Below, piece after piece: positions 26,529 through 64,000 of a stretch of 64,000 nt of DNA. Origin of the DNA: Candidatus Fervidifonticultor secundus (GTDB lineage Bacteria > Sysuimicrobiota > Sysuimicrobiia > Sysuimicrobiales > Humicultoraceae); assembly GCA_031459385.1 (NCBI GenBank), contig JAVKIP010000001.1, positions 256,001-320,000 on the forward strand. The letters run 5' to 3'. The notes under the pieces are model-generated. The model was not told the DNA's origin. It searched no databases and saw nothing but the letters and a program-made list of their open reading frames with translations. A program made the position numbers and the translations under genes. How positions within the stretch are numbered: the first letter of the stretch is position 1; every line of letters begins with the position of its first letter.

Positions 26529-26585
26529 TCATGAACCTCCCCACGCGCCGCCGCCGCACGGCCCGCGCCGTGCGGCTCCGTGCGG

Positions 26586-27959: not shown

Positions 27960-27992
27960 GCGTCTCCTCCTCGGCCCCGTGGGCAGCACCCG

Positions 27993-28907
27993 CTAGCGAC
28001 GGGCGCGCACGACCGCGGCGATGCGCCGGATGTGCTCGGGCGTGCTGCCGCAGCAGGCGCCCACGATGCGCGCGCCGGCCGCGACGATCGCCGGGTAGCC
28101 GGCGGCCATCGCGTCCGGGGCCAGGTCGTAAACCGTGCGGTCGTCGACGATCTTCGGCATGCCGGCGTTGGGATAAGCGACCAGCGGTCGGTCGGTGGCC
28201 GTGCGCATCCCGGCGATGATGACCGCAGCGCGCGCCGGGCCGCCCTCGCCGCAGTTGCAGCCGACGATGTCGGCGCCTGCCTCCGCCAGCACGCGCGCGG
28301 CCTCCGCCGGCGTCGAGCCCCAGAGGGTGCGGTCCATCTGCCGGGCCGCATTGTACTGGAAGAACATGGTGGCCATTACCGGCAGGCCCGTGGTCTCCTT
28401 GGCGGCCCGGATGGCGGCGACCGCCTCGTCGGGTACCATCATCGTCTCTACCGCGAGCAGGTCCACGCCCCCGTCGGCCAGCGCCATGGCCTGCTCGGCG
28501 AAGCTGGCGCGCATCTCGTCGACGGAGACGTCGCCCATCGCCGCCAGGGTGTCGGGCAGGTGCCCGGTGGGCCCCATGGAGCCCGCAACATACCTGCCCG
28601 GCGGACAGGCCGCACGCGCCAGCCTGGCCCCCAGGTAGTTCAGGTCGCGCACCCGCGCCTCGAGGCCGTAGGGCGCCAGTTTGAGCCGCGTGCCGCCGAA
28701 GGTGTTGGTCTCGACGATGTCCGCCCCGGCGGCGAGGTAGGCGCGGTGGATGCCCTCCACGACGTCGGCGCGGGTCTCGTTCCATAGCTCCGGGCAGGCG
28801 CCCTGCGTCAGGCCCGCCTCGAAGAGCATGGTGCCCATGGCGCCGTCGAGGATCAGGACCTCCGACGTCAGGCGTTCCAGCAGTTCCCGTCCGCGCGCGT
28901 CCCCCAT
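27993..28907 (-). CDS. Stand-alone homocysteine S-methyltransferase (MetH Hcy-binding module)
   Basis: ILDGAMGT, ETNTFG, GSMGPTG, GCNC, YPNAG.P, GACCG Zn ligands. Confidence 0.92.
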   Translation of the reverse strand: MGDARGRELLERLTSEVLILDGAMGTMLFEAGLTQGACPELWNETRADVVEGIHRAYLAAGADIVETNTFGGTRLKLAPYGLEARVRDLNYLGARLARAACPPGRYVAGSMGPTGHLPDTLAAMGDVSVDEMRASFAEQAMALADGGVDLLAVETMMVPDEAVAAIRAAKETTGLPVMATMFFQYNAARQMDRTLWGSTPAEAARVLAEAGADIVGCNCGEGGPARAAVIIAGMRTATDRPLVAYPNAGMPKIVDDRTVYDLAPDAMAAGYPAIVAAGARIVGACCGSTPEHIRRIAAVVRARR

Positions 28908-29038
28908 CGCTGTGTCCCTCTGGCTTGCGCGCCCGTGCGTCCACCGAGCCCACGTCTCGTACGTGGTGCCCGCGCATCCGCCCCGCCAAGACGCGCCCGG
29001 CCCGATCCGCTGGGCGTCCGGCGCGGCCCACCCTTTCG

Positions 29039-49260: not shown

Positions 49261-50391
49261 TCAGGCGCCGGTCGTCACGGGAACCTGCACGCCCAGCTCC
49301 TCCAGCACCGCGCGGATCGCCGCCAGCGCCCTGCGGATGTGCCCCTCGTCGATTCGCCCGATGCACCCGATGCGGAACGAGTCGACGCGGGTGAGTTTGC
49401 CAGGGTAGATCAGGTAACCGCGCCGTGCCAGGCGGTCGTAGAGCGCCTGGAAGTCGAACCGCGGGTCGGACGGCACGAGAAAGGTGACGATGACCGGCCC
49501 CTGCAGCGCGTCGGGCAGCAGCGTGCGGAAGCCCAGTGCCCGCATGCCTTCCATCAGCACCTGGCAGTTGCGCCGGTAGCGGGCCAGGCGGGCGGGGCTG
49601 CCGCCTTCGGCGGCGTGTTCCTCCAGCGCCCGGTCCAAGGCGGCCAGTACGTGCGTGGGCGGCGTGAACCGCCACTGGCCCGTCTCCTCCATGAAGCGCC
49701 ACTGGTCGGCCAGGTCGAGGACCACCGACGGTGCGTTGCCCGCGGCGGTCTCCAGCGCCGTGCGGCGCGCGATGACGAACGTCGCGCCGGGCACCCCCTC
49801 GAGGCACTTGTTGGGTGACGAGACCAGGGCGTCGTACGGCATGGTGCGGGTGTCGCAGGGCAGGGCGCCGAAGGCGCTCATGGCGTCCACGAGCAGCCGC
49901 CGCCCGGCGGCTGCCACCACGTCGGCCACCTCGGCCAGCGGGTTGACGATGCCGGAGGTCGTCTCGGAGTAGACGACGGCCACGTGGGTGACGGCCGCGT
50001 CGGTGGCCAGGGCCGCGGCCGCCACCTGTGGGTCCACGGCCTGGTCCTCGGCCCATTCCAGGACGGCGTGCGCGCGTCCCAGGACCCGGCAGATCTGCAC
50101 CATGCGGCGCCCGTAAGCGCCGTTGGCGAGGACGAGCACCTTGCCGTCACGGGGCACGAACGTGCCGAGCATCGCCTCCACCCCGAAGGTGCCCGAGCCC
50201 TGCAGGAGCACCGCCTCGTGGGTCCCCTCGCCGCCGGCGAGCTCGACGAGCCGGCGCCGTACGCGGGCCGTCATGGCCACGAACGCCGCATCACGCGATC
50301 CCCAGTCGCGCAACATCGCCTCGCGGACCGTCCGCGAGGTGGTCAGCGGGCCCGGAGTCAGCAGCACGGGCACGTCGTCGGTACGCATCAT
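49261..50391 (-). CDS. phnW: 2-aminoethylphosphonate-pyruvate transaminase
   Basis: LLTPGPLTTS, DWGSRD, QGSGT, VDAMS, SSPNKCLEG, QWRFTPPT, IYPGKLT..SFRIGCIG. Confidence 0.95.
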   Translation of the reverse strand: MMRTDDVPVLLTPGPLTTSRTVREAMLRDWGSRDAAFVAMTARVRRRLVELAGGEGTHEAVLLQGSGTFGVEAMLGTFVPRDGKVLVLANGAYGRRMVQICRVLGRAHAVLEWAEDQAVDPQVAAAALATDAAVTHVAVVYSETTSGIVNPLAEVADVVAAAGRRLLVDAMSAFGALPCDTRTMPYDALVSSPNKCLEGVPGATFVIARRTALETAAGNAPSVVLDLADQWRFMEETGQWRFTPPTHVLAALDRALEEHAAEGGSPARLARYRRNCQVLMEGMRALGFRTLLPDALQGPVIVTFLVPSDPRFDFQALYDRLARRGYLIYPGKLTRVDSFRIGCIGRIDEGHIRRALAAIRAVLEELGVQVPVTTGA

Positions 50392-52094
50392 CGCCTCCGC
50401 CAGGCCTGGGTGCGCCGGTCGAGCCCCCGCGCCACCAGCAGGTGGAGCAGCTTCACCGCCGCCGACGTGTAGAAGATCATCATGGCCATGGCCGCGGCGG
50501 CGCCCTGCTGGCCGGTGTCGTCCATGTAGACCACCGCGATGGACGCCAGGCGGGTGTGCGGCGCCCACAGGAAGATTACTGCCGAGACTGTGGTCATGGC
50601 GTTGACGAACAGGTAGACCGCGATGTCGAGGATGGCTGGCAGGCACACCGGCACCGTGACGGCCCAGAGCGTGCGGTAGAACGGTGCCCGCAGCGACGCC
50701 GAGACGGCTTCGAACTCGGCGTCGAGCTGCTTGAGGGCCGTGGTCGCGGTCAGGTGGCTCACGGTGTAGAAGTGGACGATGGTGTTGATCACCATGATGG
50801 CCAGGGTGTTGTAGAGGAACCCCAGGGGGTTGGCGGGGTGGTTGAAGAAGAAGATGTAGCTGATGCCCAGCACCAGCCCCGGTACGGCTAAGGGCAGCAT
50901 GGCCAGCAGCTGCGTCAGGACCCGCACCGGTCCCCACCCCCGGGTCTTCTCCAGCAGGTAGGCGGTGGTGAAGACGATGGCCGTGCCCACCAGGGCCGCG
51001 GCCCCCGCCATCCTCAGAGAGTTCGTGTACGGCAGCCAGCCCTGGGTCTCGAAGCGGGCAAAGTTGTAGTTTTTCAGCCCCAGCGCCAGGTTGTAGGGCC
51101 AGAACGAGACAAACGAGCCCCACGCGGCCACCGCCAGTAGGCCCACGATGGGCACGGCGATGAGGGTACAGATGCCGAAGAACGTCCAGTCCACCGCCGG
51201 GCGCGGCCGGGGCTGGAGCGGCACCGCCTGGGGCGTGAGGGTGGCCTGCTGGCGGAGGCGCACGTAGCGTTCGGCCAGGAACGAGAGCACCGCGGGGACC
51301 AGCAGGATCATGCTGACCACGGCACCGGTCTCGAAGTTCTGGCGGCCGAAGACCTGCTTGTAGACGTCGGTGGCCAGCACGTTGAACTGTCCGCCGATGA
51401 CCTTGGGAATGCCGAAGTCGGTGATGACCAGGGTGAACACCACGAAGGCGGCGCTCATGAGGCCGTACTTGGCGCCGGGCACTGTGACCGTCAGGAAGAT
51501 CCGCCGGGGTGTGGCGCCCAGCGCGGCCGCCGACTCGTACAGCCGCGCGTCGGCCGTGGCCAGGGCGGTGGTCAAGATCATCAGGGCGTGGGGGAAGCAG
51601 TAGACGGCCTCGGCCGCGACGATCCCCAGCGGCCCGTAGATGGAGTGACCCAGCAGCCAGTCCCGGAGCAGCCCCTGGTTGCCGAACAGGTAGACCAGGG
51701 CCAGGGCCTGCAGCAGCGACGGTGCCAGGATGGGGACCAGCGCCACCGCGCCGAAGACCGCCTTGGCCTTCATGCTCGTGCGGGTCAGCGCATAGGCGTA
51801 GAGGAACGCAGCCGGCAGCACCAGCACCGTGGTGACCACCGCCACCCCCATGCTGTGCCAGATGGACGACGCCAGCGCAGGACTCGCCAGGTACTCGGCG
51901 TAGTTGGCCAAGCCCACGAACCGCCCGTCCCGGTCGAGGAACGACTTGGACAGCAGCGCCCACAGGGGACCCGCCACGGTCACCGCCAGCCACAGCGCCG
52001 CACCGGCCAGGCCCGCGCGGGCGAGGCGCTCGTCGGCAGCCAGCTGCCGGCGCAGGGGCCGGGCCGCCCGGGGGGTCAGCGCCGTCGTGACCAC
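50388..52094 (-). CDS. Putative 2-AEP ABC transporter permease (PhnU2-like)
   Basis: APSLL, YLFGNQG, TDFGIPKVIGG, FVNAMTTVSA; overlaps the phnW start. Confidence 0.88.
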   Translation of the reverse strand: MVTTALTPRAARPLRRQLAADERLARAGLAGAALWLAVTVAGPLWALLSKSFLDRDGRFVGLANYAEYLASPALASSIWHSMGVAVVTTVLVLPAAFLYAYALTRTSMKAKAVFGAVALVPILAPSLLQALALVYLFGNQGLLRDWLLGHSIYGPLGIVAAEAVYCFPHALMILTTALATADARLYESAAALGATPRRIFLTVTVPGAKYGLMSAAFVVFTLVITDFGIPKVIGGQFNVLATDVYKQVFGRQNFETGAVVSMILLVPAVLSFLAERYVRLRQQATLTPQAVPLQPRPRPAVDWTFFGICTLIAVPIVGLLAVAAWGSFVSFWPYNLALGLKNYNFARFETQGWLPYTNSLRMAGAAALVGTAIVFTTAYLLEKTRGWGPVRVLTQLLAMLPLAVPGLVLGISYIFFFNHPANPLGFLYNTLAIMVINTIVHFYTVSHLTATTALKQLDAEFEAVSASLRAPFYRTLWAVTVPVCLPAILDIAVYLFVNAMTTVSAVIFLWAPHTRLASIAVVYMDDTGQQGAAAAMAMMIFYTSAAVKLLHLLVARGLDRRTQAWRRR

Positions 52095-52100
52095 GGCGGC

Positions 52101-53180
52101 TCAGTCGCCGGGGAAGACGCGGACGCGGTCAGCAGGCACGGACACGGTGAGGGTCCGGCCCGGTGCCAGGTTCACCTCGCGGTGCAGGTGCGCGGGAACG
52201 TCGGCACGGAGGGCGGCGGCATCCGCTGCGGCCGGCCGGAGGGTGGCCCGGTAGAAGGATCCCAGGAAGTCGACGGCGACCACCTCGGCTGCGATGGTGT
52301 TGGGGGCACCGGTACGGGCGCCGCGAACGTCCACGTCCTCGGGGCGGAAGCAGACGCGCACCGGGCTCCCCGCCGACAGGCCGTCGGCAGGGGCGCAGGT
52401 CAGTTCTGTGGCACCGACACGCACGCGGTCAGGGCGCAGCAGGGTACCGCGGAGGAAGTTCATCTCGCCTACGAAGTCGGCGACGAAGGAGGTGGCAGGG
52501 TGTTGGTAGACGTCCATGGGCGTGCCGATCTGCTCGATGACGCCATGGTTCATGACCGCGATGCGGTCAGCCATGGTCAGGGCCTCCTCCTGATCGTGGG
52601 TGACCAGGATCGTCGTCACGCCCAGCTGGCGTTGCAGGTGGCGGACCTCGTGCCGCAGCCGTACCCGCAGGCGCGCGTCCAGTGCCGACAGCGGTTCGTC
52701 CAGGAGCAGGAGGCTCGGCGACGGCGCCAGGGCCCGGGCCAGCGCCACCCGCTGCTGCTGGCCGCCCGACAGCTGCGCGGGGTACTTGGTCCGCTCGCCC
52801 TGGAGGCCCACCAGGGCCAGCAACTCCTCCACCCGGGCGCGGATCTGGGCCCGGGTGAGCCCTCGGCCCTGGAGGCCGTAGCCGACGTTGTCGAAGACCG
52901 TCAGGTTGGGGAACAGGGCGTACGACTGGAAGACGATGCCGAAGTCGCGACGTGCTGGCGGCAGGCCGGAGATGTCGCGTCCTTCCCTGAGGACACGGCC
53001 GCGGGTCTGGACCTCCAGGCCCATGATGATCCGCAACAGCGTGGTCTTCCCGCACCCTGAGGGGCCGAGCAGGCAGACGAACTCGCCCCGGCCGACGTCG
53101 AAGCTGACGTCCCGCAGCGCCACGAACGCCCCAAACGTCTTCCAGATCTGCTCGACCTGGAGGTAACGGGCGTCGTGCAT
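52101..53180 (-). CDS. Putative 2-AEP ABC transporter ATP-binding protein (PhnT2-like)
   Basis: [30 protein letters not shown]-like C-terminus. Confidence 0.9.
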
Positions 53181-53281
53181 GGTGGCAGCCAGGACGGCCC
53201 TGCCGGCCGCGGCCTCACCGCTGACCGGCCCGGGGCTGGTGCCGGTGCGACCAGGCCCCGGGCACGGCAGGCGATCTGGGG

Positions 53282-54328
53282 CTACCGGGTGGGTTTGCCC
53301 TCGTAGCGGCGCACCCACTCCTTGAGGATGCGGTCACGGTTCTTCGCCATCCACTCGAAGTCGTTCTTGATCATCTTCGCTTCGCCGTCGGGCGGGTAGA
53401 ACGGCGGGAGGTTGGACATACCCGGCATCCCCACGATGGCGTACCACTGGTTGTACATCTCCATGGCTCTGCGGCTGACCGAGAAGTCGACCAGGCGGCG
53501 GGCAGCAGCCAGGTTGCGCGTCCCGCGGTGGATGGCCGTCGCCTCCATGTCCCACCCCGCGCCTTCCCTGGGGACGATGACGTCGATGGGCGCGCCTTCC
53601 TGCTTCAGCCGCGCGCCCCGCATGTCGAAGCCGATGCCCAGGGTGAACTCCCCCCGCGCCGCCTGGACGCAGGGCGCCGAGCCCGAATGGGTGTAGTGGC
53701 CGATGTTGTCGTGGACCTGGTCCATGAACTTCCAGCCGTCCTGCTCGCCGAACAGCTGGAGCCACGCCGAGACCGTCAGGAACCCGGTGCCCGAGGAGTT
53801 GGGGTTGGGCATGACCAGCAACCCCTTGTAGATGGAGTTGGTCAGGTCCTTCCACGACTGCGGCCGCCGGATGCCGCGCCGGGCCGCCTCCCGGGTGTTG
53901 AAGCACACCACCGAGAGGAAGGCGTCCATGCCGGTCCACGTCATGGGGTTCTTGCTGCTGCGGAACTGGGGCTTGAGCTGCTCGGCGCCTCGCGGGGTGT
54001 AGGGCTCGATCATGCCCAGCTCCTCGAAGAGGATGATGCTGGTCACCGCCAGCCCCCAGATGACGTCGGCCCGGGGGTTGGCGCGCTCAGCCAACAGGCG
54101 CGCGGTGACGACACCCGTCGAGTCCCGCACCCAGTCGATGACGATGCCCGGGTTCTCGCGCTCGAAGGTTTCCTTGTAGGGCCCGAGCTGGTCGTTCTCC
54201 AGCGCCGTGTAGACGGTCAGCCGGGTGACCTGAGCGCGGGCCTCGCCCAGCAGGCCCACGGCCAGGGCAGCGGCAACCACCGAGACCGCCAGGTACTGCG
54301 CTGTACGCGTCCACCGTCGTGCCGGCAT
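53282..54328 (-). CDS. Putative 2-AEP ABC substrate-binding protein (PhnS2-like)
   Basis: Signal peptide, [33 protein letters not shown]. Confidence 0.9.
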
Positions 54329-54407
54329 AGTCACCCCTCCCGGACGGAACGGTCTGTGGCGCTTCCATTCCCTACGCCGTGCGCAATCCCTTGCCGCTCG
54401 CATCGCC

Positions 54408-55874
54408 CTACCCCGGCAGGCGCATGCGGATGCTTTTGACCTGCGTGTAGCTCAACAGCTCCTCCAGGCACTCCTCCCGCCCGATGCCGCTCTGCTTCAC
54501 CCCGCCGTAGGGCACGCCCAGGGCGTGGCCCCCCGGGATGTTGACCCACACATACCCCGCTTCGAGCCGGCGAGCCACCCGCAGCGCCCGGGCAGAGTCG
54601 CGGGTGTAGATTGCCGCGCTCAGCCCGTAGATGACCGCATTCGCCTGGCGGAGCATCTCCTCCTCGTCGTCCCACGTCAGGACGGCGATCACCGGGCCAA
54701 AGATCTCCTCCTGGGCGATGCGCATCTGTGGCCGCACGCCGTCGAACAGCGTGGGCTGCACGAAGAAGCCCCGGCGCAGCGCCGGATCCTCGGGCGGGCC
54801 GCCGCCGTAGAGGAGGCGGGCGCCCTCGCGGCGGCCGGCCTCGATGTATTCCAGGACCTTCTCATACTGTTCCCGCGACACCAGGCACCCGACCTGGCTG
54901 TCGTCGGCCTCGGGCAGGCCCAGACGCAGCACCCGCAGCCGGGCCAGCAGGGCGTCGACGAACGCGTCGTGCAGGTCGCGGTGGACGAACACCCGGGAGG
55001 TGCTGCTGCACGACTGCCCGGCGCGGTTGAGGTTCATGGCTCCCACCGCCGCCTCGGCCGCCTCGTCGGGCGGGACGTCCGGGAACAGGATCAGCGGGTT
55101 CTTGCCGCCCAGCTCCAGCGTGACCACCTTGAGCCCATCGGCGGCGGCCCGCATGACCGCCCGCCCGGCTTCCACCGAGCCGATCAGGGCGACCCGCCGC
55201 ACCAGGGGGTGGCGGACCAGGGCCGCGCCGGTCGTGGGACCGTCGCCGGTCACGATGTTCACGACGCCCGGCGGGAACAGGTCCGCTACCAGGCGGCCCA
55301 GCACCAGGGACGAGAGGGGGGCCTGCTCGGGCGGTTTGATGACCACGGTGTTGCCGGCCGCCAGCGGCGCCGCCAGCTTCTCGGCCGCGAACCGCAGCGG
55401 GTGGTTGTACGGGTTGATCTTGGCCACGACGCCGTAGGGCTCGCGCACCGTGCACGCAAACTCGCCGAGGCCGGTAGGGTACGTTTCCCCTTTGAGTTCG
55501 GGGGTCAGCCCGGCGAAGTAGTCCAGCGCCTCCGCCGCCCAGTCCACGTCGCGGCGCATGCCGGTGATCACGTTGCCCGAGTTGAGGGCGTCCAGCCGCG
55601 CCAACACGTCGCGGTGCTGGCGGAGGGCGGTGGCCAGCTGACGCAGCCGCACCGCGCGCTCGGCCGGCGGGGTGGCGGTCCAGGCGGGAGCTGCCGCGTG
55701 CGCTGCAGTGACGGCGAGATCGACGTCGGCTTCGTCGGCCAGCGGGACGTGGGCCAGCACTTCCCGGGTGGCGGGGTTGTAGGTCGGCAGGGTACGGCCG
55801 GACCGGCTCTCTTCCCAGCGCCCGCCGATGAACAGCCGGCCGACCGGCAGCTCGTCGAGCAGCGTCACGGACAT
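54408..55874 (-). CDS. Aldehyde dehydrogenase (PhdK-like subfamily; candidate phosphonoacetaldehyde dehydrogenase)
   Basis: PYNHP, ALIGS, LELGGKN, GQSCSSTSR, EEIFGP; does not resemble canonical PhnY as recalled. Confidence 0.88.
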   Translation of the reverse strand: MSVTLLDELPVGRLFIGGRWEESRSGRTLPTYNPATREVLAHVPLADEADVDLAVTAAHAAAPAWTATPPAERAVRLRQLATALRQHRDVLARLDALNSGNVITGMRRDVDWAAEALDYFAGLTPELKGETYPTGLGEFACTVREPYGVVAKINPYNHPLRFAAEKLAAPLAAGNTVVIKPPEQAPLSSLVLGRLVADLFPPGVVNIVTGDGPTTGAALVRHPLVRRVALIGSVEAGRAVMRAAADGLKVVTLELGGKNPLILFPDVPPDEAAEAAVGAMNLNRAGQSCSSTSRVFVHRDLHDAFVDALLARLRVLRLGLPEADDSQVGCLVSREQYEKVLEYIEAGRREGARLLYGGGPPEDPALRRGFFVQPTLFDGVRPQMRIAQEEIFGPVIAVLTWDDEEEMLRQANAVIYGLSAAIYTRDSARALRVARRLEAGYVWVNIPGGHALGVPYGGVKQSGIGREECLEELLSYTQVKSIRMRLPG

Positions 55875-56078: not shown

Positions 56079-56945
56079 CTACCCGGGGTGCGGGACTGCC
56101 AGCCGCTCGGGCGGCAGCGTGCGCTCCGGCGGCCCGTCGTAGAACTCCGGTTTCTGCAGCTCCAGGTCCAGCGGTTGCACGATGGGTGCCTGCGTCGAGG
56201 CCCGCCAGCCGCGCTCGCGGTGCATCTCCTCGTAGGTGTGGGCGATGAGCCCTACCGTCCGCGACAGCAGGTAGACGCCCTTGATCAGGTCCACGTCGAA
56301 CCCCATGTCCATGCAGATGGCGCCCACCGCCCCGGGGCCGTTCAGGTAGAGGCGCCGACCCCAGAACTCCTCGGTGGCCGCCTCGATGGCCCGGGCCATG
56401 GCCACGTGTCGCCCGGCCACCCCGTAGGCGTCGGCCAGCTCCAGCAGGCGCGCGGTGCGCGGGTCGACGATGTGCTGCGCATGGTGGTAGCCAGGCAGCC
56501 GTCGGCCCTCCCGCCGCGCCTCGCCGGCGACGCGGCGCGCGGTCTCCTCGAGGGTGAGACCTTCTTGGTCCATGCGGGCGATCGCCTCCTTGAACAGCGC
56601 CGCGGGCCGGTCGGCCGTGCCGTGGAGCGCGCCGAGGGCGAGCAGCCCGCCCGCCACGCCCACGTGCAGCGGCACACCGCCCGAGGTGACGAAGCGGCAG
56701 GCCGCCGACGACGGCGAGAACGCGTGCTCGCACTGGTTCACCAGAATGGCATCGAGCATGCGGGCGTGGTGCTCGGGGGGCAACTCGCCGCGCCAGACCA
56801 GGTAGGCCATCTCGGCGAACGAGACCCGACCCGTCAGGTCGTTGATGTTGTACCCGCGGACCACCACGCGGTCCCGGGTCTTGTAGGCGATGGCGGTACG
56901 CCAGTGGAATGGCTCCCGGCGCGGTGTCGCTGCGGCTGGTTCCAT
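56079..56945 (-). CDS. Citryl-CoA lyase-like protein (citrate synthase fold)
   Basis: WRTAI, VRGY, EH, LHG, PGYHH, DPR, SRTVGLIAH; NGPG replaces NVDG. Confidence 0.82.
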   Translation of the reverse strand: MEPAAATPRREPFHWRTAIAYKTRDRVVVRGYNINDLTGRVSFAEMAYLVWRGELPPEHHARMLDAILVNQCEHAFSPSSAACRFVTSGGVPLHVGVAGGLLALGALHGTADRPAALFKEAIARMDQEGLTLEETARRVAGEARREGRRLPGYHHAQHIVDPRTARLLELADAYGVAGRHVAMARAIEAATEEFWGRRLYLNGPGAVGAICMDMGFDVDLIKGVYLLSRTVGLIAHTYEEMHRERGWRASTQAPIVQPLDLELQKPEFYDGPPERTLPPERLAVPHPG

Positions 56946-56990: not shown

Positions 56991-57824
56991 CTATCGCGGC
57001 GCCGGCCGGACGCCGGCGACGGTGGCGTCGTCGGACCTCAGGTAGACACGCTGCGGGTCGAGCTCTTCGCGCAGCACCCGCAGGTCCTCGGCCTCTGGCG
57101 GTGCCACCGTGCCCACGTCCGCCGCCACCTCGGGCCGGAACCCTGTCTGGGCCAGGACGTCGTCCACGCGCACCCCCGGCATCAGGCGCGTCAGGCGCAG
57201 CGTGCACGTCACGGGATCGCTTTCGAGCACCGCCAGGTCGGTGACCACGGTCACGGCGAAGTCGGGAGACAGCCCGGCCCGCTGGCGGGCCCCGGGGCCG
57301 TCGAGGAACCCGGGGCTGGTGATGTAGTCGCACCGCTCGGGGAACCGGCGCCTCTCGTGGTGGGCGATGATGAGCAGCCGTCGGCAGTGGCTGGCCATAT
57401 CGTTGGCACCGCCGCTGCCCGGCAGCCGGCGGCGCAGCGCGCCCGGCGGGCCGATCTGCGTCGAGTTGATGTTGGCGTGGCGGTCGATCTGCGCGCCGCC
57501 CAGGAAGCCCACGTCGATCAGCCCCCGCTGGAGCAGGCCGCCCAGCACCTCCCGCAGCGTGCCCAGGCGCATCGCACGCGCCATGACCTTGGGGTCAGAG
57601 ACCGAGATCGGTGTCGGCCGCACCAGCGGCGCGATGACGCCGCTCTCGATGACCATGACGACACCCGGGGCGTGGCGGCGCTGCGCCAGGGCCGTGGCCA
57701 GCAGGGGCAGACCCGTGCCGACGAAGACCACCTCGCCGTCGCGCAGGCGGCGGGCGGCCTCGATCACCATGAGCTCCTGGTGACTGAAGGCGCGCGCCCG
57801 GTCGGTGCCCGTCGCCTGAGGCAC
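56991..57824 (-). CDS. Family I CoA transferase subunit B (GctB-like)
   Basis: VFVGTGLP, IESG catalytic Glu, FLGGAQID..ANIN, LPGSGGANDMA. Confidence 0.9.
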   Translation of the reverse strand: MPQATGTDRARAFSHQELMVIEAARRLRDGEVVFVGTGLPLLATALAQRRHAPGVVMVIESGVIAPLVRPTPISVSDPKVMARAMRLGTLREVLGGLLQRGLIDVGFLGGAQIDRHANINSTQIGPPGALRRRLPGSGGANDMASHCRRLLIIAHHERRRFPERCDYITSPGFLDGPGARQRAGLSPDFAVTVVTDLAVLESDPVTCTLRLTRLMPGVRVDDVLAQTGFRPEVAADVGTVAPPEAEDLRVLREELDPQRVYLRSDDATVAGVRPAPR

Positions 57825-57867: not shown

Positions 57868-58863
57868 CTACAGCACCTCCCGCATGGCCGCGCGCAGCGC
57901 CGCCAGGCGCGCCGGGCCCGCGGTCCGCGCCAGGTAGTCGTCGAAGGACGGACAGTCCCACACCGTCGCCTGGAGGTACGCGTCTACCGCGGCCGGTCCG
58001 GCGCGGGCCGCCTCCTGGTAGCGGGCGACTTCGAGCGCGTCGTAGTCGTAGTGGCCGTAGACCGACGTGGGGTAGGCGCCGAACGGCTGGACCACCACGG
58101 CGTCGACGTACATGAAGGGCACCGTCGTCCGCTCGGGGGCGGCCCGGATCTCGTCGGTCGAGATCAACTCCTCGCACGAGACGACCACGGCCCGCGAGGC
58201 GCGCAGCATCTCGGGCTCGTGGGTGGCGAAGCCTTCGATGACGAGGTTGCCGAGCGGGTCGGCGCGCTGGACGTGCACGATGGAGACGTCGGGCTGCAGC
58301 GCCGGCACCAGGACCACGGGCTCGCCCGGCGCCCAGGGGTTGTCGACGACCACGGCCTTGCCGGGCCCGCGCGGCGCGGGCGTGTCGGCGCCCGGCGCCG
58401 CGGCACCCCGCCCCCCGTGGGGCGCCGCACCCGCAGGGGGGACCCCCAGCATGTCGGAGCCCAGCAGGCTGCGCGTCGGCATGAACGGCACGCCCATCTC
58501 ACCGGCCAGGAAGCGGCTGACCATGGCCAGGTGGCTGTAGTCCTCATGCTCCAGGGTGCCGTCCTCGATGCCGCGGCGCCAGCAAAACGTCACCCCGAAC
58601 CGCTCCAGGTTGCCCGAGCCCGACTCGGTGCGCCGGACCAGGCCGGCGCCGACCAGCTGGTCCATGCCGATCGACAGGTTGCAGCCCACCACGGTCAGGC
58701 CGCCGATGCGCTGGCGGATGATCTCGTGGGTCAGCGCCTGGGGACAGCGACCGATGTTCTGGCCGCCCATGCCCAGCACGCTGCCCGGCCGCACGAAGCG
58801 CGCGACCGCCTCGGCTGCTGTCATGACTTTGGGCGCGGTGCGGGCCGCGGCGGGAACTGCCAC
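57868..58863 (-). CDS. Family I CoA transferase subunit A (GctA-like)
   Basis: HEIIRQ, DQLVGAG, PFMPTRSLLGSD, HVQRAD..GN, PFGAYP; GGAGG RBS. Confidence 0.9.
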   Translation of the reverse strand: MAVPAAARTAPKVMTAAEAVARFVRPGSVLGMGGQNIGRCPQALTHEIIRQRIGGLTVVGCNLSIGMDQLVGAGLVRRTESGSGNLERFGVTFCWRRGIEDGTLEHEDYSHLAMVSRFLAGEMGVPFMPTRSLLGSDMLGVPPAGAAPHGGRGAAAPGADTPAPRGPGKAVVVDNPWAPGEPVVLVPALQPDVSIVHVQRADPLGNLVIEGFATHEPEMLRASRAVVVSCEELISTDEIRAAPERTTVPFMYVDAVVVQPFGAYPTSVYGHYDYDALEVARYQEAARAGPAAVDAYLQATVWDCPSFDDYLARTAGPARLAALRAAMREVL

Positions 58864-58963: not shown

Positions 58964-59926
58964 ATGGCGATGGCGCGCGCGCCCCTGCCCCTGGGCCCCC
59001 TGCGCACGTTCCACCAGGTGGTGGTCCACCAGGCTTTCAACCGGGCCGCGCGCGCCCTGGGCGTCACGCAGCCCGCGGTCACCCAGCAGATGCGCCGGCT
59101 CGAGCGGGCCACAGGCGTCACCCTCTTCGAGCGCGACGGCCGCCGGCTGGTGCTCACCGAGGCCGGCCGGGCCCTGGCCGTCTACACGCAGCGCATCTTC
59201 GACCTGGTGGACGCCGCGCAGGACGCCCTGGCCGGCGCCCGCGAGCTGCGCACCGGCATCCTGCGGGTGGGCGCCAGTCGCACGGCCGGCGCCTACTACA
59301 TCGCCGACCTGCTCGACCGCTTCAAGCAGCGCTACCCCGGCGTGAAGGTGAGTTTGACGGTGGGGAACTCCCAGCTCGTCCTCGACCGGATCCGGGAGTT
59401 CTCACTGCACGCCGGACTCGTCGCCGGCCGGCCCGACGACGCGGCGCTGGTGACCCGGCCGCTGGTCCGGGACCGGATGCTCGTGGTGCTGCCCCCGCGC
59501 CACCCGCTGGCGCAGCAGGCCCGCGTCTCCATTCGCGACCTGCAGGGCTGGCCCCTCATCATGCGCGAGCCGGGCTCCACGACGCGCCACCTCATCGAAC
59601 AGGCTGCGGCGGCACGCGGGGTGCTCGTCGACGCCGCGATGGAGCTCGAGAGCAACGAGGCCATCAAGAGCGCGGTGGCCGACGGGATCGGGGTGGCGAT
59701 CATGGCCCACGCCGCCGTGGCCCAGGACCTGGCGAGCGGCCGTCTGGTCGGCCGCCCGTTGCGCGAGGCCCTGGCGCTGGACTTCGCGCTGGTCTACCAC
59801 CGCGACCGGGTGCTGGCGCCCGTGCTGGCGGCGTTCCTGGCGTTGCTGCCGGCGCGCGCACGCCGCGGCGCCGGTGCCCCCGGAGGAAAGCACACGCCGG
59901 GGCAGGAACCAAGGGGCCGGCGTTAG
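58964..59926 (+). CDS. LysR family transcriptional regulator
   Basis: FNRAARALGVTQPAVTQQMRRLE, LTEAG, REPGSTTR, EAIKSAV. Confidence 0.93.
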   Translation: MAMARAPLPLGPLRTFHQVVVHQAFNRAARALGVTQPAVTQQMRRLERATGVTLFERDGRRLVLTEAGRALAVYTQRIFDLVDAAQDALAGARELRTGILRVGASRTAGAYYIADLLDRFKQRYPGVKVSLTVGNSQLVLDRIREFSLHAGLVAGRPDDAALVTRPLVRDRMLVVLPPRHPLAQQARVSIRDLQGWPLIMREPGSTTRHLIEQAAAARGVLVDAAMELESNEAIKSAVADGIGVAIMAHAAVAQDLASGRLVGRPLREALALDFALVYHRDRVLAPVLAAFLALLPARARRGAGAPGGKHTPGQEPRGRR

Positions 59927-59943: not shown

Positions 59944-61308
59944 ATGGACCGCGTCGTGCCCAAACCGTCCGAAGGCGACCTGAACCTCTCCCCCCGGCGC
60001 ACGGCCTGGCAGGCCGCGATGCTCGACGACGCCACCCGCGCCCTCCTGGACGAGGACGCCCGCTACTTCCTCCACCAGGCACTCTCGACCCCCTGCCTGA
60101 ACGCGCTGCGCCGCTGCGAGGGCATCTACCTCGAGGACCTGCAGGGACGCCGCTACATGGACTTCCACGGGAACAGCGTCCATCAGGTCGGCTTCGGCAA
60201 CCCCGCGGTGGTGGCGGCGGTCAAGGCGCAGCTGGACGCGCTGAGCTTCTGCCCGCGGCGGTTCACCAACGAGCCGGCGGTGGCGCTGGCCAGGACGCTG
60301 GCGCGCCTGGCGCCCGGCGACCTGCACAAGGTGCTGTTCTGCCCCAGCGGCACGGGCGCCATCGGCATCGCGCTGAAGCTGGCCCGCGCGGTCACCGGCC
60401 GTTACAAGACCATCTCCATGTGGGACGCGTTCCACGGTGCCTCCCTCGACGCGATCTCGGTGGGCGGCGAGGAGCTGTTCCGCCGCGACGCCGGCCCGCT
60501 GCTCCCCGGCACCGAGCACGTGCCGCCCCCTGACCCCTACCGCTGCGTGTGGGACTGCCAGACGCGCGGCGGGTGCGACCTGAAGTGCGCTGGCTACATC
60601 GAGTACGTGCTCGAGAAGGAAGGCGACGTGGCGGCCGTGATCGCGGAGACGGTGCGGGCGACGCCGGTGATTCCGCACCGCGCGTTCTGGTCGACCGTGC
60701 GGGCGGCCTGCGACCGCCACGGGGCGCTGTTGATCCTCGACGAGATCCCCACGGCGCTGGGCCGCACCGGCGCCATGTTCGCCTGCGAGCACTACGACGT
60801 CGTTCCCGACATCCTGGTGCTGGGAAAGGGCCTGGGTGGCGGCATCCTCCCCCTGGCCGCGGTCCTTGCCCGCGAGCGTTTCGATGTGGCGGCCGACCGG
60901 GCGCTGGGCCACTACACGCACGAGAAGAGTCCCGTGGCCGCCGCCGCGGCCCTGGCCACGCTGCAGTACATCGAGGACCACGGCCTGGTCGCGCACGCCC
61001 GCACGCTGGGCCGCTATGCCCTGGACCGGCTGCGCGCGATGCAGGCGCGCCACCCGTTGATCGGCGACGTGCGGGGGCTGGGGTTGCTGCTGGGCGTCGA
61101 GCTGGTCACCGACCGCGGCACACGCGCGCGGGCCACCGCTGAGGCCGAGGCGGTCTTGTACGCGGCACTGTCCCGCGGCCTGAGCTTCAAGGTCAGCATG
61201 GGGAACATCCTGACCCTGAGCCCGCCGCTCGTGATCACCCGGGCCGAGATGGACCGCGCCCTGGACATCCTGGACGAGAGCCTGACGGAGGTCGAGCGGA
61301 GCCGATGA
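59944..61308 (+). CDS. pbfA: (R)-1-hydroxy-2-aminoethylphosphonate ammonia-lyase (class III PLP)
   Basis: SEGDLN, FLHQALSTPCL, MDFHGN.VHQ, FHGASLDAISVGGE, GHYTHEKSP; linked to phnW. Confidence 0.85.
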   Translation: MDRVVPKPSEGDLNLSPRRTAWQAAMLDDATRALLDEDARYFLHQALSTPCLNALRRCEGIYLEDLQGRRYMDFHGNSVHQVGFGNPAVVAAVKAQLDALSFCPRRFTNEPAVALARTLARLAPGDLHKVLFCPSGTGAIGIALKLARAVTGRYKTISMWDAFHGASLDAISVGGEELFRRDAGPLLPGTEHVPPPDPYRCVWDCQTRGGCDLKCAGYIEYVLEKEGDVAAVIAETVRATPVIPHRAFWSTVRAACDRHGALLILDEIPTALGRTGAMFACEHYDVVPDILVLGKGLGGGILPLAAVLARERFDVAADRALGHYTHEKSPVAAAAALATLQYIEDHGLVAHARTLGRYALDRLRAMQARHPLIGDVRGLGLLLGVELVTDRGTRARATAEAEAVLYAALSRGLSFKVSMGNILTLSPPLVITRAEMDRALDILDESLTEVERSR

Positions 61309-61964
61309 TCGTCCAGCCCGACCTGGCGCCGGGGCAGACGCTACTCTACACGCTGCGCCACGGCCTCACCGAGCTGAACCGCTCCAAGCGCACCGGCGGC
61401 CGCCTGGACGTGCCGCTGACCGCGGAAGGTCGCCGGCAGGCCGAGGAGGCCCGCGAGCAGTTCGCGGGCACGGCGCTCGACGTCGTGATCGCCTCCAGCC
61501 TGGGCCGCGCGATTGAGACCGCCGAGATCGTCACGGGGTGGGCGCGGGAGCAGATGATCATCGACGATCTGGCGGTCGAGCGCAGCTTCGGCCAGATGGA
61601 AGGCCTCACCCAGGACGAGATCCGCGAGCGGTTCCCGGACGTGATCTACGTGCCGATCGACCACATCCGCTACTCCCTCAACCCGCCGGGTGGGGAGTCG
61701 TTCGAGGCGCTCCGCACCCGGGCCCGGGCGTTCCTGGCCCGCGTGCTCGCGGCCCACCGCGGCAAGCGCGTGCTGGTCTCCTCGCACCAGAACTTCATGC
61801 AGCAGCTCCACGGCGAGCTGCGGGGCCTCGACCCCTATGCGGCGCTTAAGTACGACATCCTGAACCTGGAGCTGAACCAGTTCCACCTGGACGCCGACGG
61901 TCGGCTGCTCGCCCACCGCGTCTACCAGCTCTGCCCCGACGCCTCGAAGTACCCCTCGTTCTGA
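61305..61964 (+). CDS. Histidine phosphatase (phosphoglycerate mutase-like) family protein
   Basis: LRHG, SSLGRA..TA, ERSFG..EG, PGGES, VSSH; ATGA overlap with pbfA. Confidence 0.85.
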   Translation: MIVQPDLAPGQTLLYTLRHGLTELNRSKRTGGRLDVPLTAEGRRQAEEAREQFAGTALDVVIASSLGRAIETAEIVTGWAREQMIIDDLAVERSFGQMEGLTQDEIRERFPDVIYVPIDHIRYSLNPPGGESFEALRTRARAFLARVLAAHRGKRVLVSSHQNFMQQLHGELRGLDPYAALKYDILNLELNQFHLDADGRLLAHRVYQLCPDASKYPSF

Positions 61965-61981
61965 GGGCCGGAGGCGGGCCG

Positions 61982-63280
61982 GTGGCAGCGGGCACCCGGC
62001 GGCTGCAGGCGGTGGTCGAGGCCCTGGCCGCGCGCCTGTGGCAGCGATTCCCCCCGCAGGTCCGCGGGCTGCGGCGGGTGGGCCGCGAGGCCGAGTTCCC
62101 GGTGGTCTGGCCGGACGGCCGGGCCGGCGAGGTTGCGCGCCTGTGGGACGGTCTGCGCGCCGACGCTGGTGCCCGCGTCCGGTACGATGACCCCGACCGG
62201 CGGACGATCATCGAGCGCGTGGACATCGGTGATGTCGGCTACGAGGTCGAGGTCGGCCGGGCCACCGTCGAGGTGGTGCTGCCGCCCGCCGACGATCTGC
62301 ATGGGCTGGCCGCGGCCTCCGCGGTGGCTGTGGGCCGGCTGGCGCGCGTAGCGGCCGCGGAGCGCCTGCGTATCCTCGGGTACGGCATTCAGCCCCGGGC
62401 GCGGGCCCGACCCGGCCTGATCACTCCCAAGCGCCGCTACGCCGCGTTCCACCGCAGTGTCGGCCGGCCCTGGCTGCCGTTCACGACCACGGCCAGCGAC
62501 CAGGTGCACGTGGACGTCGGGCGCGACGAGCTCATCGAGGTGACCAACGTCATGAACCTGCTGTCAGGCGCCATCATCGCGCTGACGGCCAACTCGTCCG
62601 TCTACGCAGGACAGGTCGGGCGCTTCTGCTCCGGCCGGGAAGGGCTGCTGCGCGTGCTGGGCGACCGCCACGGCATGCCGCCCCGGCCCTTCGCAGACCT
62701 GGAGGATTACGTGTGGTTCGTCTGCCAGCAGCCGTGTGCCGTGCTGCGGCGGGGCCACGACTACGTGGCGTACGGCCGGCCGCTGGCGGCATACGTCGGG
62801 GCGCGCGGGCCAGACCTCGACGCGTTCCTCTGGCACGAGCACTACCTCTGGTACAGCGCGCGGCCGCGGGCGCAGCACGCCACCGTCGAGGTCCGGCCGG
62901 CCTGCCAGCAGCCGCCCGACGACCCCCTGGCGGCTGCCGCCCTGGCCCTCGCGCTGGTGGAGGGCTGGCGCGAGGCGCGGGCGCTGGTGGCCGACGCGCT
63001 CGGCACCGACGCGCGGGGACCCGATGCCTGGCAGGCGATGGCGGCCTACCGGCAGGCGGCGATCCGCGACGGCATCCGCGCGGCTGAGCCTGCCCCGCGG
63101 TTCCTGGCCCGGCTGCTGGACGTGGCGGAGGCGGCTCTGCGCCGGCGCGGGCGCGGCGAAGAACGCCTCCTCGCCGGCCTCCGGCGCCGGGTGGAGCGGC
63201 GCCGGCTGCCGGCTGACGACGCCGCGGCGGCGTTCCGGCGCGGCGGCGCGGCGGCGCTGGTGGCGACCCGGGCGCTGTAG
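61982..63280 (+). CDS. Glutamate-cysteine ligase family 2 (GCS2)-like ligase
   Basis: VGREAEF, EVG...VE, TASDQVHVD, IALTANS, ARPR, VEVRPACQQP. Confidence 0.78.
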   Translation: MAAGTRRLQAVVEALAARLWQRFPPQVRGLRRVGREAEFPVVWPDGRAGEVARLWDGLRADAGARVRYDDPDRRTIIERVDIGDVGYEVEVGRATVEVVLPPADDLHGLAAASAVAVGRLARVAAAERLRILGYGIQPRARARPGLITPKRRYAAFHRSVGRPWLPFTTTASDQVHVDVGRDELIEVTNVMNLLSGAIIALTANSSVYAGQVGRFCSGREGLLRVLGDRHGMPPRPFADLEDYVWFVCQQPCAVLRRGHDYVAYGRPLAAYVGARGPDLDAFLWHEHYLWYSARPRAQHATVEVRPACQQPPDDPLAAAALALALVEGWREARALVADALGTDARGPDAWQAMAAYRQAAIRDGIRAAEPAPRFLARLLDVAEAALRRRGRGEERLLAGLRRRVERRRLPADDAAAAFRRGGAAALVATRAL

Positions 63281-63360
63281 GGGCCTGCCGGCGCGGGCGC
63301 CGGCGTGCCGCAGACGCGGACGCTGGGGGCGAGATGCACGACACGTGACGGAGGGAGACG

Positions 63361-64000
63361 ATGGGGCGGCTCGACGGCAAGGTCGTGTTGATCACGGGCG
63401 CGGGCAGCGGCATGGGCCGTGTCGCGTCCGTGCGCTTCGCGCGCGAGGGCGCGCGGATCGTGGTGGCAGAGGTGGCCGAGGCCGCCGGGCGCGAGACGGC
63501 CGGTGAGGTCCGCGCCGCCGGCGGCGAGGCGCTCTTCGTGCGCACCGATGTCGCGCGGGAGGCCGACGTGGCCGCGGCGGTCCGCGCGGGCGAGGAGGCG
63601 TTCGGCCGCATCGACGTCCTCTACAACAACGCCGGGATCTTCCCCCCGGACGACGGGTCGGTCGTCGACCTGGACGAGGCGGTCTGGGACCGGGTGATGG
63701 CCATCAACCTCAAGGGCATCTACCTGGTCTGCAAGCACGGCATTCCGGCGCTGCTGCGCGCCGGCGGTGGGTCGGTGATCAACATCGCCAGCTTCGTGGC
63801 CCTGGTGGGGTGCACCGTGCCGCAGGACGCCTACACCGCCAGCAAGGGCGGGGTGATCGCCCTCACGAAATCGCTGGCGGTGCAGTTCGGGCCCCGGGGC
63901 ATCCGTACCAACGCCATCTGCCCCGGGCCCATCGAGACCCCGCTGCTGACGCAGTGGCTGCTCACCAACCCCGAGGCGAAGGCGGTGCGCCTGGCGCGCA
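63361..64000 (+). CDS. SDR family oxidoreductase (runs off the window end)
   Basis: Read from sequence: MGRLDGKVVLITGAGSGMG, NNAG, YTASKGG, NAICPGP. Confidence 0.9.
   Translation, partial: MGRLDGKVVLITGAGSGMGRVASVRFAREGARIVVAEVAEAAGRETAGEVRAAGGEALFVRTDVAREADVAAAVRAGEEAFGRIDVLYNNAGIFPPDDGSVVDLDEAVWDRVMAINLKGIYLVCKHGIPALLRAGGGSVINIASFVALVGCTVPQDAYTASKGGVIALTKSLAVQFGPRGIRTNAICPGPIETPLLTQWLLTNPEAKAVRLAR

Follow-up and report, generated by a model that had tools for sequence, protein, structure and literature searches.

We describe here a gene in a 64,000-nucleotide stretch of the genome of Candidatus Fervidifonticultor secundus (contig JAVKIP010000001.1, positions 256,001 to 320,000; hereafter the window) which encodes a citrate-synthase-fold, citryl-CoA-lyase-like protein (CCLL, 288 aa, positions 56079..56945, minus strand) that has lost the catalytic Asp of its family and stands among genes for the uptake and breakdown of 2-aminoethylphosphonate (AEP). 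From comparative genomics we predict, with moderate confidence, that CCLL cleaves the carbon-phosphorus (C-P) bond of phosphonoacetyl-CoA to give acetyl-CoA and phosphate, and we consider it quite probable that a thioester-forming enzyme and CCLL together make up the C-P-cleaving ending of the pathway. Phosphonates are a major organic phosphorus pool, and genome surveys score the capacity for AEP degradation by the known C-P genes. To our knowledge few ways of breaking the C-P bond have been described, namely C-P lyase, the hydrolases PhnX, PhnA and PalA, and the oxidative PhnY*/PhnZ system.

The CCLL open reading frame occupies exactly 56079-56945 on the minus strand, starts with ATG and has a third-position G+C content (GC3) of 0.92; in a genome of 72% G+C this codon bias indicated a real gene. 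The protein matched citrate-synthase-family models and structures only, with no membership in the superfamilies of PhnX (HAD), PhnA (alkaline phosphatase) or PalA (PEP mutase/ICL), and it would work like the known C-P hydrolases while standing outside their families. The match to Pfam Citrate_synt (PF00285, 114 bits) covered profile positions 163-355 of 357, which is the C-terminal half only, and CCLL is not a full-length citrate synthase, being 288 aa long against roughly 370-430 aa for the two-domain enzyme and lacking the catalytic Asp; it also scored far under the cut-off of every citrate synthase model in NCBIfam. Its best NCBIfam matches were the 'citryl-CoA lyase' PRK06224 models, and public records name CCLL in the same way. 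Two subfamily models were passed by a small margin (NF004869, 216.5 vs cut-off 212; NF004868, 202.3 vs 193), and the protein fell below the cut-off of NF004866 (237.8 vs 245) and of all three equivalog models (177 vs 261, 111.8 vs 409 and 96.3 vs 323). The best solved relative by phmmer was 6HXP, the citryl-CoA lyase (Ccl) of Hydrogenobacter thermophilus (E 5.7e-46). An AlphaFold2 model of CCLL made with 100 sequences had a pLDDT of 94.6, and its best fold match was also 6HXP (TM 0.81/0.91, rmsd 2.0 Å, 35% identity in the fold alignment); judged by the model, the fold of CCLL is intact.

CCLL shares with Ccl, and with the citryl-CoA lyase (CCL) module of ATP-citrate lyase, a short citrate-synthase fold and the H-G, G-x-x-H, D-P-R and S/G-R motifs. 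These are found as L107-H108-G109 (LHGTAD), G152-Y-H154-H155 (GYHHAQH), D161-P-R163 and an SR motif with Arg229, and a further stretch reads L199-Y-L-N202-G203-P204-G205. The initial annotation had proposed that LHG, GYHH and DPR are kept, that NGPG takes the place of N-V-D and that the catalytic Asp is thereby lost. The open reading frame, the motifs and the 6HXP alignment all agree with this: in the phmmer alignment with Ccl, which had been suggested as a check, LYLNGPGA of CCLL lies under LVLNVDGA of 6HXP, so that Pro204 occupies the Asp position. Unlike Ccl, CCLL has G-x-H-H-x-Q-H for G-x-G-H, the extra His154 giving GYHH, has HGTAD for HGGAxE, and belongs to a clade with a C-terminal insertion, W-R-A-S...Q-P-L-D-L-x-L-Q-x-P-E-Y-Y-D-G-P. 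Residues H74, H108, H155, R163 and R229 were invariant across clade alignments A1 and A2; we take them to be the equivalents of citrate synthase His238, His274, His320, Arg329 and Arg401. In citrate synthase Asp375 is the base. In ATP-citrate lyase we presume D541 or D1026 to be the Asp of N-V-D; the alignments obtained from the PDB with the fused representative P0158 were with succinyl-CoA synthetase. The description of this Asp in the initial annotation as an established catalytic residue is textbook knowledge for citrate synthase and holds to that extent; for the citrate-synthase-homology domain of ATP-citrate lyase it does not stand as worded, as opinions are divided on whether D1026, the corresponding residue, serves as a general base or allosterically (PMC10115795).

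The loss of the Asp is shared by a whole clade. In an alignment of the query with 120 database homologues of at least 62% identity the motif was NGPG in 114 sequences, NAVG in 6 and NAPG in 1. Among 109 related loci from species-representative genomes and metagenomes it was NGPG in 70, NAVG in 22, NAPG in 9 and NVVG in 1, with the site uncovered in 7, and none of the 102 loci that cover the site has an Asp there; the HH doublet was kept in 108 of the 109. Representatives of the wider short-CCL family mostly have N-[VIAL]-D-G together with G-x-G-H. In a maximum-likelihood tree the Asp-less clade stood apart from ten canonical representatives (SH-aLRT 99) and contained four groups, one from the window's phylum, one with NAVG, one actinobacterial and one without an adjacent CoA-transferase (support 95). 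About 30 residues, the His/Arg set included, are invariant in the clade, and Thr110/Asp112 and a C-terminal Trp247-Arg248-x-Ser250 segment are specific to it. The sequence comparison indicates that the Asp loss is not a sequencing accident. The possibility that CCLL is a decaying pseudogene was ruled out by the clade-wide conservation and the tree support of 99.

Within a tight eight-gene operon on the minus strand CCLL stands in third place, the order being CoAT_A, CoAT_B, CCLL, aldehyde dehydrogenase, PhnS2, PhnT2, PhnU2 and PhnW. CoAT_A (57868..58863, Pfam) and CoAT_B (56991..57824, Pfam CoA_trans) are the A and B subunits of a CoA-transferase of the glutaconate type. GctAB of Acidaminococcus fermentans (1POI) is the nearest solved relative of both, with E values of 8.5e-46 (1POI_A) and 3.8e-47 (1POI_B), and scores against the NCBIfam 3-oxoacid transferase models were far under cut-off. 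For CoAT_A the start-codon scan gave a likely start at GTG 58863 behind GGAGG; the longest open reading frame extends to 59157, and the 1POI_A alignment begins at residue 110 of that long frame. The segment 'viESGv' of CoAT_B aligns with 'ivESGl' of 1POI_B, the Glu of ESG being conserved. This Glu is the catalytic residue of glutaconate-type CoA-transferases, and glutaconate CoA-transferase takes acetyl-CoA as donor. The predicted transferase resembles GctAB in these respects and differs in its predicted acceptor, phosphonoacetate instead of glutaconate.

The aldehyde dehydrogenase (54408..55874, minus strand, Pfam Aldedh 512 bits) is non-acylating and of the betaine-aldehyde dehydrogenase (BADH) type, with a likely start at ATG 55874 and a longest frame to 56012. 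Its nearest solved structures are BADH and it is not a PhnY orthologue (TIGR03250, 233 bits vs cut-off 636); we propose that it serves as a phosphonoacetaldehyde dehydrogenase. A putative AEP ABC importer follows on the same strand, consisting of the substrate-binding protein PhnS2 (53282..54403; TIGR03261, 453 vs 393), the ATPase PhnT2 (52101..53318 as longest frame, with a start that is probably later; TIGR03265, 512 vs 458) and the fused permease PhnU2 (50388..52094; TIGR03262, 775 vs 593). The last gene encodes the 2-aminoethylphosphonate aminotransferase PhnW (49261..50391, minus strand; Pfam Aminotran_5; TIGR03301, 477.5 vs 360.8, match at G000:C1:305306-306367, window 49306-50367), the start of which overlaps the PhnU2 stop. 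Divergent from the operon, on the plus strand, are a LysR regulator (58964..59926) and PbfA (59944..61308; NF049939, 723 bits vs cut-off 525). The LysR protein had its best match, below cut-off, in the LysR subfamily associated with AEP catabolism (TIGR03339, 245 bits vs cut-off 341), and its divergent arrangement is conserved. The PbfA enzyme, which acts on hydroxy-AEP, is described in PMC8154272, and PMC8154272 and PMC12366243 have both PhnW and PbfA yielding phosphonoacetaldehyde.

No known enzyme for the next step was found in this genome, which is 3.3 Mb in size and 97.6% complete. There was no PhnX over cut-off (best 54 vs 220 bits), no PhnA (28.6 vs 407.6) and no phosphonopyruvate hydrolase PalA (119.7 vs 374.4), and the profile search gave neither PhnJ nor PhnZ. 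By its predicted gene content the organism is one with AEP import and phosphonoacetaldehyde formation and without a known C-P-cleaving enzyme. The cluster is like the hydrolytic AEP clusters in having PhnW and an AEP-type importer over cut-off and unlike them in having no PhnX, or PhnY with PhnA. Five further carriers of the module, namely two relatives, a Streptosporangiaceae metagenome-assembled genome (MAG), Catenulispora pinisilvae and C. rubra, also had no PhnX (0/5) and no PhnA (0/5) over cut-off, and PhnJ was absent from the four of them that were searched (relative G002 left out).

The survey was extended to 94 genomes, from 31 genera, of the window's phylum. CCLL (>70% identity) was present in 23 genomes of 12 genera and PhnA over cut-off in 12 genomes, these belonging to two genera of one family (g21, 6/6; g23, 6/7), and no genome had both. 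PhnX over cut-off was found in none of the 94, two of which had sub-cut-off matches of 173-178 bits. PbfA was called at E <= 1e-120 in 28 genomes, 27 of them over cut-off; 18 of the 28 had CCLL, 6 had PhnA, 2 had a distant CCLL homologue (38% identical) next to PbfA, one (G024) had a PhnX-like gene, and in one (G059) none of these was detected. When the unpublished genomes G021 and G029 are set aside the counts become 21 for CCLL, 26 for PbfA and 16 for both, and no claim hangs on these two genomes alone.

Gene order gave a closer view of this exclusion. In genus g21 (L131, L133) the order is PALP enzyme, PhnA, class-III aminotransferase, LIV importer and PbfA, with a divergent glutamine-synthetase-like ligase, short-chain dehydrogenase (SDR) and GNAT gene. 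In genus g26 (L071) LysR with CoAT_A, CoAT_B and CCLL stands in the PhnA slot of the same g21-like frame. Genome G024 (L135) keeps GCS2-HisPhos-PbfA and PhnS2T2U2-PhnW in the arrangement of the window, whereas a single block of genes, namely LysR, CoAT_A, CoAT_B, CCLL and the aldehyde dehydrogenase, is missing. A PhnX-like gene of G024 (174.9 vs 220 bits) is placed in a second transporter cluster. From the slot swap in g21/g26 and the block loss in G024 we read, at the level of gene content, one conserved cluster with three interchangeable endings: a PhnX-like enzyme, for which the dehydrogenase is unneeded; PhnA; or dehydrogenase, transferase and CCLL. The initial annotation had put CCLL forward as the best candidate for a new C-P hydrolase, and this candidacy gains support from the carriers that have no PhnX, PhnA or C-P lyase, and from the exclusion of PhnA and its use of the same slot.

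A variant ending was found in G011 (L134:8071-11007) and G008 (L137:556-3489), which belong to one genus and count as a single case. Here an HD protein, an Asp-less CCLL homologue and an acylating aldehyde dehydrogenase with SauS, the acylating sulfoacetaldehyde dehydrogenase, as its best match (NF047625, 503 bits vs cut-off 600) are convergent on PbfA, beside an ABC importer and a LysR protein 68-70% identical to that of the window. The CCLL homologue is distant and His-poor, with AHGPGH, GLGQPQH, DPR and TNVIGG. Sulfoacetaldehyde is the sulfonate analogue of phosphonoacetaldehyde, and by this analogy the dehydrogenase would form phosphonoacetyl-CoA in one step, with the transferase unneeded. 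We regard the variant as the most direct pointer to a thioester as substrate of the citrate-synthase-fold protein.

The surroundings of the 109 related loci were surveyed by tblastn with the window proteins and with reference proteins from other loci. Where at least 500 nt were available ahead of CCLL, which was so in 90 loci, CoAT_B was the gene immediately before it in 71; when a wider gap was allowed, CoAT_B was upstream in 76 loci and absent from 15 with at least 900 nt upstream, 18 being too short to judge. A stringent phosphonate marker was present in 32 of the 52 loci with at least 8 kb of flank (PbfA in 25, PhnW/AEPT in 14, PhnS2 in 14, PhnS in 3 and PepM in 3), where markers were scored at identities of at least 60% for PbfA, 37% for PhnW/AEPT, 45% for PhnS2 and 60% for PhnS, and at any match for PepM (identities 54-100%). 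The 20 marker-less loci were mostly one-sided contigs, or clusters whose siblings have PbfA farther out, and some held divergent markers: PhnV in L110, a PhnW-like gene in L116 (341 vs 360.8) and PhnS2-like genes in L097 and L086 (349 vs 392.75). Three importer types were found beside the module, PhnS2T2U2, a LIV type and, in Catenulispora, PhnSTUV (NF011620, 493 vs 310 bits; NF011624, 378 vs 247). The aldehyde dehydrogenase has been recruited at least twice, as a BADH-like protein in the window lineage and a KGSADH-like protein in Actinomycetota. The Asp-less clade is embedded in AEP or hydroxy-AEP catabolic clusters in at least four lineages.

Canonical short-CCL paralogues of the window's phylum, with the motif N-[VIL]-D-G, served as a control. 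Their neighbourhoods were examined at 20 loci, over as much as about 10 kb to either side; one more, in an unpublished genome, was set aside. None of the 20 had PbfA, PhnW/AEPT, PhnS, PhnS2, PhnA or the CoA-transferase. Three matched the PepM query at 25-30% identity, none reaching 50%; they would pass as markers under a loose rule that takes any PepM hit, and we take them for further proteins of the PEP-mutase/isocitrate-lyase superfamily. The test set beforehand for the initial annotation was whether homologues of the NGPG type keep to phosphonate (phn) neighbourhoods, and they did so, in at least four lineages and with three importer types against 0/20 canonical controls. Six control loci (L149, L150, L152, L153, L155 and L157) adjoin a SauS-like acylating dehydrogenase (40-41% identity), from which it follows that short CCLs are generally, as a family, apt to be paired with an enzyme that forms an acyl-CoA. 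The SauS-like dehydrogenase with a canonical CCL and no phosphonate genes looks like an uncharacterised pathway of aldehyde, acyl-CoA and lyase.

We infer the substrates of the dehydrogenase and the transferase, the phosphonoacetyl-CoA intermediate and the cleavage of its C-P bond by CCLL, and the route would run as follows. AEP or (R)-hydroxy-AEP would be imported by PhnS2T2U2 and converted by PhnW or PbfA to phosphonoacetaldehyde, which the aldehyde dehydrogenase would oxidize to phosphonoacetate. The glutaconate-type CoA-transferase would then convert acetyl-CoA and phosphonoacetate to phosphonoacetyl-CoA and acetate. CCLL would bind phosphonoacetyl-CoA in the citrate-synthase active site, where His108 would polarize the thioester carbonyl and turn the acetyl-CoA enolate into a good leaving group, and the phosphonate, lying in the place of oxaloacetate and held by His74, His155, Arg163, Arg229 and the new His154, would be transferred to water. 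The products would be phosphate and acetyl-CoA, the latter priming the next round; CoA would be catalytic and the net reaction, phosphonoacetate + H2O to acetate + Pi, would be that of PhnA. In the G008/G011 variant the SauS-like acylating dehydrogenase would make phosphonoacetyl-CoA straight from phosphonoacetaldehyde. As a leaving group the alpha-carbanion of a thioester is far superior to that of a carboxylate, and in citrate synthase the His274 equivalent stabilizes the acetyl-CoA enolate. The catalytic Asp would be dispensable because the enolate would arise by phosphoryl loss, with no C-H deprotonation, and His154, Thr110/Asp112 and the Trp247-Arg248-x-Ser250 segment are candidates for the proton donor to the enolate or the activator of water.

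The proposed scheme has parts in common with several known systems. It shares with the PhnW-PhnY-PhnA pathway an importer, PhnW and/or PbfA, an aldehyde dehydrogenase and the same predicted net reaction. PhnA is a metal-dependent hydrolase of the alkaline-phosphatase superfamily; unlike it, CCLL would use a thioester electron sink on a citrate-synthase fold, and the dehydrogenase is not a PhnY orthologue. The PhnW-PhnY-PhnA pathway of Sinorhizobium meliloti is named in PMC4046663. As to the cycle itself, its likeness is to malonate decarboxylase and citrate lyase, in that an acetyl-thioester is exchanged with X-CH2-COO-, X is lost and the acetyl-thioester is regenerated. Both of these enzymes run exchange-then-cleave acyl cycles; the module differs from them in that free CoA esters would be used with no acyl-carrier protein, phosphoryl would be lost to water in place of CO2 or oxaloacetate, and the proteins are unrelated. 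Activation of an X-CH2-COO- acid as its CoA thioester is also known from the SauS/SauT sulfoacetate pathway of Cupriavidus necator (the family name being that of NF047625), but there sulfoacetyl-CoA undergoes reduction to the aldehyde and desulfonation falls to a different enzyme, whereas here the thioester itself would be cleaved. CCLL also differs from Ccl in its partners, which are a CoA-transferase and phosphonate catabolism in place of citryl-CoA synthetase and the reductive tricarboxylic acid cycle.

With somewhat less assurance we lean towards CCLL as a fourth mechanistic class of hydrolytic C-P cleavage, in which the thioester would be made by an acetyl-CoA-recycling transferase or an acylating dehydrogenase and an Asp-less enzyme would expel the acetyl-CoA enolate from phosphorus; the clade, recruited also without the transferase to PEP-mutase clusters, may define a 'phosphonate-handling' branch of the citrate synthase superfamily. 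By analogy, and with the same slight preference, the thioester would play the role that falls to the Schiff base in phosphonatase or to the metal-bound enolate in PhnA/PalA.

We have to admit that a number of points weigh against C-P cleavage by CCLL. The case is drawn wholly from genomic context, and the surveyed genomes are related and give few independent contrasts, about 12 genera vs 2. In chemical terms, the loss of the Asp leaves the enolate with no evident proton donor, three genes would be used for the net reaction of the single enzyme PhnA, and all of the apparent oxaloacetate-binding residues are retained, which makes a second carbonyl substrate possible. An aldehyde dehydrogenase was found within 6 kb in only 27 of 43 CoAT-CCLL clusters, and several full-flank clusters, for example L071 and L016, have none within 10 kb. 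No PhnW over cut-off was found in the Catenulispora and Streptosporangiaceae genomes, where the source of the aldehyde is unexplained. A metagenome contig (L114:5320-10816) carries a true PhnA (480.8 vs 407.55) directly upstream of aldehyde dehydrogenase, CoAT_A, CoAT_B and CCLL, so that PhnA and the module are not always alternatives; it was the only PhnA match by tblastn among the 109 loci, and a PHO4 phosphate transporter and a metallophosphoesterase are nearby.

A further difficulty is the monophyletic sister subclade (SH-aLRT 95) without an adjoining CoA-transferase, which was absent in 15 loci that have at least 900 nt of upstream sequence. Its motif is NAPG or MNGPG and the same active-site residues are kept. 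In L024, L027, L101 and L102 the sister CCLL lies directly upstream of phosphoenolpyruvate (PEP) mutase, followed in L024:9980-15059, L027:9974-17136 and L102:10001-15119 by phosphonopyruvate decarboxylase and then AEP transaminase or an Fe-alcohol dehydrogenase. In the two loci examined with Pfam, L024 and L027, the PEP mutase carries a fused cytidylyltransferase; contig L101, of 4.7 kb, stops within PepM, and in L103 the sister CCLL adjoins an AEPT-like gene. These PepM-linked clusters lie in cell-surface glycan-biosynthesis clusters of spirochaete-type genomes. A CoAT_B homologue was not found with this query in three spirochaete genomes, a weak negative as the search had no positive-control genome. 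A C-P hydrolase is hard to place in such a biosynthetic PepM context, which the hydrolase model leaves unexplained.

Other explanations were weighed as well. One of them keeps the position in the pathway and changes the substrate, for example to 2-hydroxyphosphonoacetate from transaminated hydroxy-AEP or to a different short phosphono-acid, with another acyl-CoA such as glycolyl-CoA as product. It would suit the fact that PbfA, a hydroxy-AEP enzyme, is the commonest partner (25/52 loci), it would make sense of PhnA and the module occurring together in L114 if their substrates differ, and it could employ the extra class-III aminotransferases, of unassigned specificity, that accompany many CoAT-CCLL clusters. 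Nevertheless, the slot of the module is elsewhere filled by PhnA and in all other cases the one excludes the other, with 0 overlap between 23 and 12 genomes, and the papers cited above have PhnW and PbfA both giving phosphonoacetaldehyde; we consider a change of substrate rather unlikely.

We give a similarly low probability to the view that the C-P bond is broken by some unrecognised enzyme, such as the histidine phosphatase, a PF01676 metalloenzyme or the HD protein, with the transferase and CCLL handling the C2 product, for instance to assimilate acetate or acetyl-CoA, or with CCLL as a non-catalytic partner. The missing catalytic Asp, a sister clade that works without the transferase, and the phosphatase-like genes nearby (His_Phos_1 in the window, PF01676 in L013 and L062, HD in L134) would all be in keeping with it. 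However, CoAT and CCLL are conserved over the four lineages and none of the other candidates is, and the roughly 30 invariant residues with the His/Arg set among them argue for a catalytic CCLL; for CCLL to act as a condensing enzyme on acetyl-CoA the Asp would be required. The histidine phosphatase was considered as a hidden C-P hydrolase and rejected as the main explanation, as G024 has kept it next to PbfA while losing the CoAT-CCLL-ALDH block. Since His_Phos_1 is kept in this genome, which has a PhnX-like gene, it is the block that behaves as the substitute for PhnX or PhnA.

A dephosphonylative reaction of the Claisen type, in which the enolate left by phosphoryl loss from phosphonoacetyl-CoA attacks a bound 2-oxo-acid (oxaloacetate or glyoxylate) in place of accepting a proton and C-P cleavage is coupled to C-C formation, would account for the retention of all equivalents of the oxaloacetate-binding residues with loss of the base alone, and no base would be needed if the enolate comes from departure of a leaving group. 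We regard it as improbable, as the phosphonate would have to share the oxo-acid space, the clusters hold no genes that supply oxo-acids or handle citrate or malate, and equivalence with PhnA requires hydrolysis only. Lastly, an ordinary citryl-, malyl- or citramalyl-CoA lyase of central metabolism with incidental phosphonate neighbours is very improbable: NF004869 and NF004868 were passed and public records use the lyase name, but all 102 loci that cover the motif lack the Asp, the equivalog models fail (e.g. 177 vs 261), the phosphonate context recurs in four lineages vs 0/20 canonical paralogues, and no succinyl-CoA-synthetase-like or citryl-CoA synthetase genes adjoin CCLL among its window neighbours. 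The suggestion in the initial annotation that this is not citrate chemistry is favoured by the same absence of the Asp, the failed equivalog models and the lack of a citryl-CoA synthetase partner. C-P cleavage of phosphonoacetyl-CoA by CCLL is the reading that we prefer.

The literature searched, which left subscription papers and most supplements outside, contained no CoA-dependent phosphonate route and no citrate-synthase-fold protein in phn or PepM clusters. Phosphonoacetyl-CoA was met in one paper only, where it had been anticipated as the product of a biosynthetic BKACE enzyme but was not observed. Papers on PbfA, PbfF, the FAD enzyme, PntC and the PepM inventory gave, on a term search, no mention of a CoA-transferase or citrate-synthase-fold protein; 'citrate synthase' occurred there only for the homocitrate-synthase homologue FrbC, and the one supplement of PMC8942020 examined had no PF00285. 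If the prediction is true, lineages now scored as unable to do so would mineralize AEP or hydroxy-AEP, among them Methylomirabilota-type MAGs, Actinomycetota such as Catenulispora, and 12 of the 31 genera surveyed in the window's uncultured phylum. In that case a thioester would for the first time be seen to act as electron sink in C-P cleavage, and the short 'citryl-CoA lyase' homologues, a large family of which most members are uncharacterised and many subfamilies have altered active sites, would receive their first non-citrate function.

Within that family, other short 'citryl-CoA lyase' subfamilies without the first His and/or the Asp were observed, for example with VFVGSE and N-A-T-G, or with NTVSPQ (representatives P0152, P0153, P0166, P0185, P0203 and others). 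The family name probably hides several unknown functions.

The PbfA operon of the window continues on the plus strand with the histidine-phosphatase-superfamily protein (61305..61964, Pfam His_Phos_1) and a GCS2-family carboxylate-amine ligase (61982..63280, Pfam GCS2, no NCBIfam match at 1e-15). A short-chain dehydrogenase cut by the window end (63361..63999, plus strand, Pfam adh_short) is conserved beside the cluster. Two alternative modules were seen divergent from the phosphonate operon, namely the histidine phosphatase, GCS2-type ligase and SDR (window 61305-63999) or a glutamine-synthetase-like ligase, SDR and GNAT (L016/L065/L071/L131). The presence of an ATP-dependent carboxylate-amine ligase in both hints at gamma-glutamylation or acylation of an amino-phosphonate. 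In clusters without an aldehyde dehydrogenase, a PF01676 'Metalloenzyme' of the alkaline-phosphatase clan, with no NCBIfam match, follows a class-III aminotransferase (L013:4714-5655, L062:12506-13654).

Elsewhere in the window (25857-30907, minus strand) an uninterrupted gene of the MtmB family (monomethylamine methyltransferase-like, 467 aa) is accompanied by a B12-binding corrinoid protein and a RACo-type reductive activator in what is a non-methanogen; by sequence this is a corrinoid methyltransferase system with no substrate assigned. In Catenulispora the PhnSTUV operon ends with a gene of the acyl-CoA-dehydrogenase fold, over 500 aa long and with no close characterised relative (L020:1-1523, also L018 and L110), and this flavoprotein may make the aldehyde. 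Beside actinobacterial CoAT-CCLL genes we also observed a fused DAO/GCV_T protein (dimethylglycine-oxidase-like) with the formyltetrahydrofolate deformylase PurU (L116:4804-8100, L017:15887-18084), together with an M20 peptidase in L017, and the DAO/GCV_T and PurU neighbours suggest that demethylation of N-methylated aminophosphonates feeds the pathway.

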